From: Actinomycetota bacterium
GTDB taxonomy: Bacteria > Actinomycetota > Geothermincolia > Fen-727 > Anoxymicrobiaceae
NCBI GenBank assembly: GCA_018894655.1
Contig: JAHIPE010000234.1
Span: 1 to 30,462 of the forward strand
Direction of reading: 5' to 3'
Length of the DNA: 30,462 nucleotides
Every line of letters starts with the position of its first letter. Position 1 is the first letter of the stretch. Of the stretch, positions 14,835 through 29,535 are shown in pieces. Below the pieces are notes generated by a model. That model made no database searches, was not told the DNA's origin, and was given only the letters and a program-made list of their open reading frames with translations. The translations under genes and the position numbers were made by a program.

Positions 14835-14859
14835 ATTGTCTACTATTATGGTAGGTTAT
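14835..14859. promoter_or_regulatory. Putative Rrf2/IscR-type operator (cys promoter / larE divergent region)
   Basis: ATTGTCTACTATTATGGTAGGTTAT; imperfect palindrome CTAC-N7-GTAG; matches the recalled IscR type-1 consensus ATASYYGACTRWWWYAGTCRRSTAT at 20/25 by hand; similar box at 29511-29535. Confidence 0.65.
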
Positions 14860-14868
14860 CTAATAATT

Positions 14869-14898
14869 ATCATACAGGCTGGCCCCCGCTCGTGTCAA
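14869..14898 (-). promoter_or_regulatory. Sigma70-type promoter for the Cys leader-cysK operon
   Basis: TTGACA (14898-14893), 18-nt spacer, TATGAT (14874-14869). A second TATAAT lies at 14835-14830. Confidence 0.6.
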
Positions 14899-14961
14899 GA
14901 TAGACTATCAATGGATGAGCTCGATCAAAGGCGGGAGAACCTTTTTCCCGGGAGTACGGCA

Positions 14962-15786
14962 ATGGAGGCGAATCTCAAGGCGAAGCACCTCGCACTAAAG
15001 CGCAACCTGGCGGATACGGGGAGCGCGGTCCTCGCTTTCTCCGGGGGTGTAGACAGCACCCTTGTGCTCGCGGTCGGCAGGGAAGCTCTCGGTGACAGGA
15101 TTATCGCGGCAACCGCCCGTTCGCCGCTGTACCCTCGATCGGTTGTCGAAAGAGCCGCCACTCTGGCTCAGCGGCTTTGCGTTGAACATGTAGTCCTGGA
15201 CTCCAACGAGCTTGAGGACGCCCGGTTTACGTCCAACCCTCCGGAGCGCTGCTACCTTTGCAAGCGGGAGCTCTACGGCAGGCTCGACCGACTTGCCAAG
15301 AAAAGGGGGGTTGCGGCGGTAATCGACGGTACCCAACTGGATGACACGAGTGATTACCGTCCGGGAATGAGGGCGGCGGCAGAATTTGGTGTGCGGAGCC
15401 CGTTGCTCGAGGTCGGATTCACAAAGGATGAAATAAGGGCATTTTCAAAAGAGCTCGGCCTTGATACCTGGGATATCCCCGCCGGCCCGTGCCTGGCCTC
15501 GCGAGTGCCCTACTCGGAAGAAATCACTCCCCGGAAACTCGCCGCTATTGAGCAGGGCGAGCAGTTCCTGGGAGAACTGGGTTTTCGCGAAGTCAGGGTC
15601 CGCTTTACGAAAGACAGTACGGCGCGGATCGAAATCACCGCCGACTGCATATCGAAACTTGCTGACAAGGCGGTTCGCGAGAAGGTCGTGGGCAAGATGA
15701 AGGAACTGGGCTTCCTGTACGTCACCCTGGACCTCGAAGGATACAGAACCGGTTCAATGAATATGATCCTAGCCGATCAGGATTGA
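14962..15786 (+). CDS. larE: LarE-family ATP-dependent sulfur insertase (PP-loop)
   Basis: AFSGGVDS, RCYLCK, DD..DYRPGM, PCLASRVPY and VTLDLEGYRTGSMN motifs. ATG 14962 has a GGGAG RBS; ATG 14911 is possible. The track start at 14836 runs through the promoter and is unlikely. Confidence 0.9.
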   Translation: MEANLKAKHLALKRNLADTGSAVLAFSGGVDSTLVLAVGREALGDRIIAATARSPLYPRSVVERAATLAQRLCVEHVVLDSNELEDARFTSNPPERCYLCKRELYGRLDRLAKKRGVAAVIDGTQLDDTSDYRPGMRAAAEFGVRSPLLEVGFTKDEIRAFSKELGLDTWDIPAGPCLASRVPYSEEITPRKLAAIEQGEQFLGELGFREVRVRFTKDSTARIEITADCISKLADKAVREKVVGKMKELGFLYVTLDLEGYRTGSMNMILADQD

Positions 15787-15788
15787 AT

Positions 15789-15920
15789 GTCGTAGCCGAG
15801 CGCGCCATGTACTTCGTCCACAGCGACGGCGACTGCAGCCGCGACGGAGGACACGCGACCGCGGGGATCAACGGCCCCTCGATGACCCGGTACTTCGCCG
15901 GGGGCTACACCGGTTTCTAG
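15789..15920 (+). pseudogene. Short relic of a repeat-domain surface protein (DUF5719-like)
   Basis: Translates [43 protein letters not shown]-stop. It resembles the AERxMYF...GGH...W(Y)FAEGYTG repeats I recall from secreted proteins of deep-branching anaerobic Actinomycetota. Confidence 0.55.
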
Positions 15921-27953: not shown

Positions 27954-29252
27954 TCAGGTCGCGGCCTTCCTCAGTGCTTGATCGATGTCGGCCTTTATGT
28001 CTTCAGGGTCCTCGAGACCTATGGACAGGCGCACGTAGTCCTCCGTAGTCCCCGTCGCCTCCTGCTCCTCGCGGGTCAACTGCTGGTGGGTGGTTGACGC
28101 GGGGTGTATCACCAGGCTCTTCGCGTCACCGATATTCGCGAGGTGCGAGAGAAGTGTTACGGACTCTATGAAGCGTTTGCCCGCTTCCAGCCCGCCTCTT
28201 ATTCCAAAGCCCACCAGGCCACCGAAATGTCCGCCGAGGTACTTCTTGGCGAGCTCGTGGCTGGGGTGATCTTCGAGTCCCGGGTAGTTCACCCACTCGA
28301 CGAGCTCGTGCGTCTCGAGCCACTTGGCGATCTCGAGGGCGTTATCCGAGTGCTTCTTCTGCCTCAAGGGGAGGGTCTCCAGACCCTGGAGAAATAACCA
28401 GGAGTTGAACGGGCTCAGCGGAGCCCCGATGTCTCGCAGCAACTGGACCCGGACCTTCAATATGAAAGCAACGTTGCCGAGTTCCGGGTGATTGCCGAGG
28501 GCGTCCCAGAAGACGAGACCGTGATAGCTCGGATCCGGCTCGGTGAACTCGGGGAACTTCCCGTTGCTCCAATCGAACCGGCCCGAATCCACGATCACGC
28601 CGCCGATAGAGGTCCCGTGGCCGCCGATGTACTTGGTCGCCGAATCCACGACGATGTCGGCACCGAAGTCGATCGGCCTGACCAGGCCGATCCCTACGGT
28701 GTTGTCCACCACGAAAGGGATGCCGGCATTGTGAGCGATGCCGGCAATTGCCTCGAAATCGGGAACGTCGAGCTTCGGGTTCCCGATCGTCTCGGCATAC
28801 ACAGCCCTCGTTTTCTCGGTTATCGCGCTCTCGATCTGTTCGGGCCGCGTCGAATCAACGAACTTCGCGGTTCGACCCAGCTTGGGAAAAGTGTAATGGA
28901 ATAGTTGATAGGTTCCGCCGTACAAGTTGTCGGCCGATACTATCTCGTCCCCCACACGGGTAATCGCAAGGAGCGCTAATGTCTCCGCCGCCTGCCCGGA
29001 GGCAACCGCGAGCGCCCCTGTCCCCCCCTCCAGGGCGGCCACCCGCTTTTCAAAAACGTCAGTCGTCGGATTCATTATCCTGGTATAGATGTTGCCGAAC
29101 TCCTTCAGCGCGAACAGGTTGGCCGCGTGCTCGGTGTCATTGAAGACGTACGAAGTGGTCTGGTAGATGGGAACAGCCCGTGCTCCTGTTGCCGGGTCCG
29201 GGCTTTCCTGACCCGCGTGTATCGCTATCGTGTCGAACTCTTGCTGTGTCAT
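27954..29252 (-). CDS. metY: O-acetylhomoserine sulfhydrylase (aminocarboxypropyltransferase)
   Basis: [54 protein letters not shown] and RLSIGLE motifs; AAGGAGG RBS. Confidence 0.96.
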
Positions 29253-29302
29253 TTCTTTCTCCTCCTTTGCCCGGTATCAAAATTACGAGGCGTTTTCTCG
29301 AG

Positions 29303-29345
29303 AAATAAAAAACCCGCCAACCGTTTCCCCACCTGGCTGCGGGTT
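29303..29345 (-). terminator. Intrinsic terminator of the met leader (attenuator 3:4 stem)
   Basis: mRNA AACCCGC-AGCC...GGUU-G-GCGGGUU followed by UUUUAUUU, about 50 nt before the metY ATG. Confidence 0.88.
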
Positions 29346-29408
29346 CTTCCTTGATGAATGTCAGAAAGATGATGCCTACATAGGCATGCCCCCCGCGCGC
29401 AGGTGGGA
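29327..29408 (-). promoter_or_regulatory. Antiterminator (2:3) helix of the met leader
   Basis: UCCCACCUGCGCGCGGG (29408-29392) pairs with CCCGCAGCCAGGUGGGG (29343-29327): 9 bp + 5 bp GC-rich helices that sequester the terminator 5' arm. Confidence 0.82.
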
Positions 29409-29483
29409 TCGCATAGCCATGCGACACATCATCATCTGCCTATCGCCGATATAGCTTATCGAGTCATTGCCAGGTCTTATCAT
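29376..29483 (-). CDS. Met-rich leader peptide (MIRPGNDSISYIGDRQMMMCRMAMRSHLRAGGMPM)
   Basis: AGGAGA RBS 7 nt upstream of ATG 29483; 7 internal Met codons plus 1 Cys in the last 19 codons; lies between the promoter and the terminator. Confidence 0.88.
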   Translation of the reverse strand: MIRPGNDSISYIGDRQMMMCRMAMRSHLRAGGMPM

Positions 29484-29510
29484 GCAGACATCTCCTGATG
29501 CGAATACAAT

Positions 29511-29535
29511 AAACCCTACCATTATGATAGAGAAT
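29511..29535. promoter_or_regulatory. Putative Rrf2/IscR-type operator at the met promoter
   Basis: AAACCCTACCATTATGATAGAGAAT; 19/25 identical to the reverse complement of the 14835-14859 box; overlaps the -10 element and predicted start site. Confidence 0.6.

Follow-up and report, generated by a model that had tools for sequence, protein, structure and literature searches.

A shared palindromic box at the cysteine and methionine operons of an uncultured actinobacterium, likely an operator of an Rrf2-family repressor, and a methionine-codon leader attenuator

The trp operon of Escherichia coli combines the TrpR repressor with the trpL leader-peptide attenuator, and the yrrT-mccAB operon of Bacillus subtilis, a sulfur-specific two-tier case, combines CymR with an S-box riboswitch. 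CymR of B. subtilis and Staphylococcus aureus, their master repressor of cysteine metabolism, senses cysteine through CysK and O-acetylserine. IscR, known from E. coli and Thermincola potens, is an Rrf2 regulator that senses iron-sulfur clusters. CymR is described as an Rrf2-family repressor with targets that include cysK, cysteine-supply genes and methionine-to-cysteine genes of the cystathionine beta-synthase (CBS) and cystathionine gamma-lyase (CGL) type (PMC2940859). The consensus of the type-1 site of IscR is ATASYYGACTRWWWYAGTCRRSTAT (PMC3899308). Here we describe a 30,462-nucleotide stretch of DNA (the window; contig JAHIPE010000234.1 of assembly GCA_018894655.1) from an actinobacterium of the family Candidatus Anoxymicrobiaceae, class Candidatus Geothermincolia, in which similar boxes stand at the promoters of a cysteine (cys) and a methionine (met) operon. 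These boxes are likely operators for a dimeric repressor of the Rrf2 family. The last gene of the cys operon encodes a member of the subfamily concerned, and the repressor would act together with a downstream leader layer. The core of this proposal, one putative Rrf2 operator common to the cys, met and probably the larE promoters, is well supported by comparison across genomes.

The arrangement resembles that of the trp operon in having an operator over the promoter and start region, followed by a leader rich in codons for the end product with alternative antiterminator and terminator structures, and in that one tier would read the cellular pool and the other tRNA charging. Unlike in the trp operon, the repressor is of the Rrf2 family, the amino acids are methionine and possibly cysteine, one regulator serves two pathways, each with an amino-acid-specific leader of its own, and the regulator gene lies inside a regulated operon. 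The original prediction knew of no description of the paired architecture and called for a literature check; the view that it is undescribed is not supported, as the combination of a repressor with a leader attenuator is already known in kind from the trp design and from the parallel of CymR with the S-box. What appears to be undescribed is the Rrf2 subfamily, its motif, an iron-sulfur (Fe-S)-type Rrf2 regulator over cysK and metY in Actinomycetota, and the Met-codon attenuator.

Two 25-mers with 19/25 identity and the core CTAC-N7-RTAG had been noticed in the window, and both their coordinates and their identity were reproduced. A consensus scan also placed them, as proposed, downstream of the -10 elements of TTGACA-type promoters. 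The boxes, the promoters concerned and the divergent gene are as follows.

14835-14859, cys 25-mer, reverse complement ATAACCTACCATAATAGTAGACAAT
29511-29535, plus strand, met 25-mer AAACCCTACCATTATGATAGAGAAT
14840-14854, cys/larE box, 15-bp palindromic core, on the minus strand CTACCATAATAGTAG (14854-14840), position weight matrix (PWM) score 28.4
29516-29530, met box, 15-bp palindromic core, on the minus strand CTATCATAATGGTAG (29530-29516), PWM score 30.0
29533-29561, minus strand, metY operon promoter: TTGACA 29561-29556, 17-nt spacer, TG-TATATT 29538-29533; 11/12 matches, extended -10
14869-14898, minus strand, cysK operon promoter: TTGACA 14898-14893, 18-nt spacer, TATGAT 14874-14869; 11/12 consensus matches
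14803-14831, plus strand, candidate larE promoter: TTGAAA, 17-nt spacer, TATCAT; the box starts 8 nt past its -10
14965-15786, plus strand, larE (ATP-dependent sacrificial sulfur transferase), divergent from cysK; TIGR00268 310.6 bits, cut-off 150

The core common to both boxes is a 15-base 7-1-7 palindrome, CTAYCATAAYRGTAG. Both operons lie on the minus strand, and the 19/25 figure comes from boxes that point opposite ways with respect to their promoters; when both are read on the minus strand, the 15-bp cores agree at 13 of 15 positions, each being a near-perfect 7-1-7 palindrome. Either alignment is valid because the core is palindromic. The consensus derived for the operator is wwCCTAYC-N5-GRTAGGww. 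The met box starts 2 nt past the metY -10 and would span approximately -3 to +12 relative to the predicted start site. The cys box starts 14 nt past the cysK -10, at approximately +8 to +22 of the predicted cysK transcript and +2 to +16 of the predicted larE transcript.

The cysK and larE promoters stand face to face, and the single box falls within the 20-30-bp overlap of their predicted transcripts. Control of larE had been suggested only tentatively and is strengthened by comparison: larE is also divergent from cysK in three relatives (G007, G001 and G008:C261; larE identity 65-68%), and the geometry TTGAAA/TTGCAA-17-TAnnnT-8 nt-box is present in all four genomes with divergent larE, our own included. 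Conservation of the larE promoter accounts for the conserved stretch that directly follows the box in the cys leaders. One operator serving face-to-face cysK and larE promoters would be a compact design.

The genome to which the window belongs is a 1.88-Mb metagenome-assembled genome (MAG) in 284 contigs, 82% complete, and the public runs that contain this DNA are groundwater DNA metagenomes, with no RNA run among them. The degenerate 15-mer CTAYCATWATRGTAG has exactly two exact matches in the whole MAG, the cys and met boxes, both at TTGACA-type promoters, compared with approximately 0.006 expected from the base composition of this GC-rich genome. A symmetrised weight matrix built from 13 sites and scanned over the window's genome only ranked the met and cys boxes first and second, followed by a site on contig C214 before a second metY copy (26.1) and a site at C42:1767 (22.4). 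All four outscored the maximum in a reversed-genome control (18.2).

Weaker matches at C215:4574 (which contains TATAAT and precedes an unidentified gene), C98:6921 and C204:3872, as well as several one-mismatch matches within coding regions of relatives, were judged to be chance or promoter-like.

The box first seen in one genome is kept in related genomes at metY and at close cysK orthologues, its palindromic core being retained across genera while the flanks diverge. A protein search found metY in 7 of the 17 family genomes (8 copies in total), and every copy is preceded by the same series of elements: TTGACA-17-TAnAAT, 2-3 nt, the box, a Met-rich upstream open reading frame (uORF) and a terminator. 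A DNA search with the met leader retrieved, besides a paralogue from the same genome, orthologues from four other genera. In an alignment of six metY leaders the promoter hexamers and CTA-CATAA-G-TAG are invariant and the distance from box to -10 is fixed, with divergent surroundings; the metY boxes of G002 and G008 were found beyond this alignment, that of G008:C157 carrying a 2-nt insertion. Searching 40 relatives for DNA similar to the cys leader gave nothing usable, and the cys boxes in relatives were located through cysK orthologues. The box stands ahead of 6-7 close cysK orthologues, and the closest of these (at least 79% identity; G001, G002, G007 and two copies in G008) have CTAYY-N5-RRTAG behind a consensus promoter. 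Among the cysK leaders the distance from box to -10 is variable, and the G003 version is only weak. More distant families of the class have CTACT-N5-GATAG ahead of cysK, approximately 1.2 kb upstream of a gene for a 47-49% identical Rrf2 protein.

The Rrf2-family protein encoded at 7435-7875 had been proposed to regulate both operons, and the subfamily to which it belongs is very probably the binder of the boxes, being by far the best candidate on the evidence of boxes at the promoters of its orthologues, in rrf2/metY intergenic regions and ahead of operons that end in rrf2. In the window, rrf2 is the last gene of the cys operon, with genes named from Pfam and NCBIfam matches.

7435-14564, minus strand, cys operon, 8 genes with gaps of at most 32 nt or overlaps
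13608-14564, minus strand, cysK
12794-13579, minus strand, thi4-like
11954-12769, minus strand, DUF6775
10768-11961, minus strand, nifS/iscS-like
10019-10735, minus strand, cysE
8934-10049, minus strand, mnmA
7907-8941, minus strand, thiF/moeB
7435-7875, minus strand, rrf2, Rrf2-family regulator of 146 amino acids with C93-x6-C100-x5-C106; PF02082 E = 1.2e-36

Orthologues of this protein, 62-76% identical, occur in 12 of the 16 other family genomes, and their genes are found in three arrangements. In the window, G007 and G001, rrf2 ends the cysK operon, and these copies form a supported clade (96/92), the only one among the Rrf2 paralogues. In G003:C11 and G002:C54, rrf2 and metY diverge from an intergenic region that holds the box. 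The remaining copies are standalone, and most have TTCCTATCGnnATGnTAGnTT 45-200 nt upstream of the start; in those inspected (L074, L076, L078 and L102) a TTGACC -35 and a TAGATT -10 flank the box, whose own right arm forms this -10, and one standalone pair has only a degenerate box scoring near background. Across 360 kb of rrf2 loci, some of them duplicates, the matrix gave approximately 20 matches scoring at least 16, versus approximately 0.6 expected from the genome control. Among the family genomes without the orthologue, G009, G010 and G015 gave no intergenic box with the pattern used and G004 gave a one-mismatch match only. The presence of the box at rrf2, metY and cysK, combined with this co-occurrence, is the pattern that comparative genomics usually shows for a repressor that controls its own gene and for the operator it binds.

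Five standalone paralogues (L074, L076, L078, L085 and L102) are divergent from a gene with its own TATAAT promoter and a product that starts MEVTLSIIKADVGG(W/F)VGHSDVHP, which by eye resembles a fructose-1,6-bisphosphate aldolase/phosphatase.

The protein at 7435-7875 belongs to the Rrf2 family, scoring 126.2 bits with PF02082 (cut-off 30; profile positions 1-131 of 132) and 121.2 bits with TIGR00738 (cut-off 73.3). All orthologues examined in the class retain C93, C100 and C106 without exception. The nearest solved structure is Thermincola potens IscR (4cic, E = 2e-24), followed by CymR of B. subtilis and S. aureus, and the B. subtilis CymR alignment is gapped where the cysteines lie. The protein resembles IscR in having three conserved cysteines in the same segment, in its apparent autoregulation, in the cysteine desulfurase gene within a putatively regulated operon and in a 25-bp pseudo-palindromic putative operator. 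The cysteine spacing of E. coli IscR is C-x5-C-x5-C, compared with C-x6-C-x5-C here. Unlike those of IscR, the predicted targets are cysteine, homocysteine and larE genes, with no iscU or suf target detected in the whole-genome matrix scan and a nifS/iscS-like desulfurase within the box-headed cys operon.

A likeness of the boxes to IscR type-1 sites, part of the original prediction, holds for the overall match, which is above chance (20/25 for cys and 18/25 for met, compared with a shuffle mean of 13.4), but not for the half-site, which is CTAYC rather than GACT. Overall, the protein appears IscR-like by its cysteine ligands and CymR-like by its targets, and by profile score it falls in neither equivalog. 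A cluster-dependent (Fe-S) signal is the most economical inference. If so, the two best-studied Rrf2 paradigms would be joined in one protein, with IscR-like cluster ligands and a CymR-like cysteine and methionine regulon.

The second layer of the original prediction, in which amino-acid-specific leader peptides lie downstream of the boxes, stood for methionine and only in part for cysteine. The methionine features are listed here, again with Pfam and NCBIfam assignments.

22460-29252, minus strand, met operon, 6 genes
27954-29252, minus strand, metY
26792-27919, minus strand, metX
26137-26808, minus strand, metW
25017-26183, minus strand, variant radical SAM protein (NCBIfam NF045502 'variant_rSAM', 363 bits), between metW and cystathionine beta-synthase
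23592-24998, minus strand, cystathionine beta-synthase
22460-23602, minus strand, cystathionine gamma-lyase
29376-29483, minus strand, Met-rich leader peptide of 35 amino acids with 8 Met, MIRPGNDSISYIGDRQMMMCRMAMRSHLRAGGMPM, ending ...RQMMMCRMAMRSHLRAGGMPM
29305-29345, minus strand, intrinsic terminator of the Met attenuator, with compensatory changes; z = -3.12 for the fold of the window's own leader

The Met leader has the form of a classical leader-peptide attenuator in both its open reading frame (ORF) and its alternative structures. AGGAGA stands upstream of the ORF, the peptide is kept in all 8 metY leaders, and the 3' part of the leader ORF, CCCACCUG...GCGGGG (29406-29391), can instead base-pair with the terminator's 5' arm and so form the antiterminator. 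Predicted stabilities in the 8 leaders range from -21 to -34 kcal/mol for the terminators and from -19 to -30 kcal/mol for the antiterminator duplexes. RNAalifold identified compensatory pairs within the terminator. In G008:C157 there is a double swap between regions 2 and 3, in which CCUCGCUG with CAGCGAGG replaces CCCACCUGG with CCAGGUGGG, both partners having changed together. At gathering thresholds, Rfam gave no riboswitch, T-box or leader family in the whole window, and therefore the leaders are not known RNA families. For Actinobacteria, Seliverstov et al. (2005, PMC1262725) reported that they found methionine genes to be preceded by no RNA element, unlike the full Met attenuator predicted here in Anoxymicrobiaceae, and our literature search found no published methionine-codon leader attenuator.

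The second metY copy of the genome (C214:1084-2616, locus L012) encodes a protein 90% identical to the window's MetY. It comes with a separate promoter, a box (CTAGCATAACGGTAG), a Met leader (MARSNENVQIMCRMAMRPHLGAGGMLM*) and a terminator, and this leader is more similar to leaders from other genera than to the one in the window.

Downstream of the cys box lies a Cys-rich uORF.

14648-14767, minus strand, Cys-rich uORF of 39 amino acids, 6 Cys in the last 16 codons, C-terminus ...DCVDGCCPCIMCCAPLL*

The block (R/G)C(C/R)PCIM of this uORF is kept in G008:C261 and G007, and conservation of the Cys leader is limited to these Cys codons, with no defined attenuator switch. A terminator scan of the cys leader found no terminator-like site after the uORF. 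Leader ORFs of this kind have precedents, as actinobacterial Cys leader ORFs were predicted without terminators and Rho was proposed to act (Seliverstov et al. 2005, PMC1262725), and work in mycobacteria later showed that such ORFs act as attenuators (Canestrari et al. 2020, bioRxiv 10.1101/834739). Like them, the window's uORF is a short reading frame with consecutive Cys codons close to its stop, upstream of a cysK operon and without an intrinsic terminator; unlike them, it is longer (39 amino acids), is not leaderless, lies behind a putative Rrf2 operator and is carried by only 3 of the 7 related cysK leaders with the box. A tRNA-charging tier at cys is no more than plausible.

Because the operator covers the predicted start-site regions of metY, cysK and larE, a bound repressor would block open-complex formation or promoter escape. 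Since rrf2 is co-transcribed with cysK, thi4, nifS, cysE, mnmA and thiF, the circuit would be negatively autoregulated. The three-cysteine motif suggests that the signal is Fe-S cluster occupancy or redox state, reporting sulfur and Fe-S supply. At met, a ribosome stalled at the Met codons of the 35-amino-acid leader would leave CCCACCUG...GCGGGG free for pairing with the terminator's 5' arm. On the cysK transcript with its Cys-rich uORF, Rho or translational coupling may act, as discussed for mycobacteria.

A broader proposal, which we hold tentatively and would not put at even chances, is that an IscR-type Fe-S Rrf2 protein was recruited in Geothermincolia as master regulator both of the pathways that make cysteine and homocysteine and of sulfur trafficking (nifS, thi4, mnmA, thiF and larE), with its own cluster occupancy as the sulfur gauge and in series with the amino-acid-specific leaders. 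If it is true, each operon would compute 'general sulfur status AND specific tRNA charging'. Under the main proposal, the trp-style design of repressor plus leader peptide would have been reinvented for sulfur amino acids, and the circuit would bear on the coupling of sulfur supply, Fe-S status and amino-acid synthesis in anaerobes. The motif, regulator and targets together form a regulon that can be tested, in a deep-branching class of uncultured actinobacteria for which groundwater and subsurface metagenomes are the only source.

Several observations count against these proposals. The one-mismatch pattern is only modestly enriched (33 matches versus 23 in the control), and the regulon beyond the top sites is therefore uncertain. 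Several genomes hold two Rrf2 paralogues that are 65-70% identical and share the same recognition helix, either of which may act at a given box. The regulator falls short of the IscR equivalogs (TIGR02010, 103.9 bits versus a cut-off of 207.55; PRK10857, 81.9 bits versus 275) and of the CymR equivalog (NF047409, 104.2 bits versus 195). At cys, the Cys-rich uORF is missing from the other 4 of the 7 box-bearing leaders, and the window's cys leader folds no better than shuffled sequences (z = -0.10).

The alternative that survives best, although we consider it unlikely, keeps the Rrf2 protein at the box but has it work as CymR does, with CysK as co-repressor, O-acetylserine as signal and no Fe-S cluster. 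The predicted targets cysK, cysE and CBS/CGL parallel those of CymR, itself one of the nearest solved relatives, and rrf2 shares an operon with cysK here and is its neighbour in other families of the class. The two systems are also alike in linking an Rrf2-family protein to cysK, cysteine-supply and CBS/CGL genes, here as putative targets, the boxes occurring across genomes at cysK, metY (with CBS/CGL) and cysE-containing operons. They differ in that CymR lacks a three-cysteine motif, whereas the protein here has an invariant C-x6-C-x5-C, and in that rrf2 ends a cysK...thiF operon of an actinobacterium and is paired with leader peptides, not with riboswitches or T-boxes. The invariance of the cysteines across the class, at a place where B. 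subtilis CymR has a gap, and the score of 104 against the CymR cut-off of 195 argue against this alternative. A complex prediction for the Rrf2 dimer with CysK gave no support for a complex and no evidence against one, and an Fe-S cluster and a CysK partner are not mutually exclusive. Any likeness of the boxes to the CymR operator (TTCCTAT-N7-ATAGGAA) is not used as evidence.

It is improbable that the box is a real operator bound by another transcription factor encoded elsewhere, the proximity of rrf2 being incidental. The genome does encode other regulators, among them a second, distant Rrf2 protein (34% identity, contig C100), but genes of this particular subfamily have the box within their promoters or ahead of them, in three gene arrangements and many genomes, and the pattern used found no box between genes in three of the four family genomes that lack the orthologue. 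A 15-21-bp palindrome with an above-chance match to the IscR type-1 site also fits an Rrf2 dimer. Still less probable is that the palindrome acts in RNA, as a 5' stem-loop stabilising the transcript or as a terminator-like hairpin. A hairpin of 5-8 bp is possible, T-rich sequence follows and the terminator scan flags the metY box, but this reading was rejected on position: the metY box starts 2-3 nt past the -10, which puts the predicted start site inside its left arm, and at the rrf2 promoters the box lies between -35 and -10 and would not be transcribed. In addition, the cys box is read in both directions, and the mismatched arms show no strand-specific wobble pattern. Chance likeness or AT-rich promoter composition, despite the -10-like hexamers (CATAAT) in the box and weaker genome matches such as C215:4574 that are probably mere promoters, is effectively refuted by the comparative data, with both exact matches at sulfur amino-acid promoters where almost none was expected and a core conserved while its flanks diverge.

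Two further sites in the same genome were examined for their neighbouring genes. The fourth-ranked site (C42:1767-1787, locus L090; ATCCTACTGAAACGGTAGACT) lies 4 nt past a TTGACA-17-TATAAA promoter, upstream of a GlcD/GlcF-like operon (FAD_binding_4, CCG/Fer4, FAD_binding_4), and may be a regulon member outside sulfur amino-acid synthesis. A weak box at C215:10029-10049 (locus L037; GCCCTCCCATAACGATAGATT, PWM score 17.1) falls below the control maximum; it precedes a gene whose N-terminus is, by eye, like that of a cysteine-desulfurase-family aminotransferase. This link would be biologically coherent and is statistically unsupported.

A second class of cysK paralogues, 62-73% identical to the window's cysK, was found at seven loci (L045, L046, L049, L050, L052, L056 and L058), and none of their leaders has the box. 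These leaders carry a conserved 16-codon uORF approximately 120-330 nt upstream, x-x-R/K-L-x-W-Y-W-x-R-Y-H-R/H-L/F-V-x-stop, which was not found in the window's own genome (82% complete). Synonymous third-position changes between genomes suggest that the peptide itself is under selection, and a terminator-like hairpin comes after the uORF in several loci (e.g. L046 and L058). The uORF may thus encode a peptide with a sensory or arrest function.

Finally, the cys/larE and met loci of the window are separated by a copper/heavy-metal cluster on the minus strand (15917-21849), which encodes a 1202-amino-acid P-type ATPase with two HMA domains, a DsbD_2-cupredoxin-HMA fusion and a small HMA protein.

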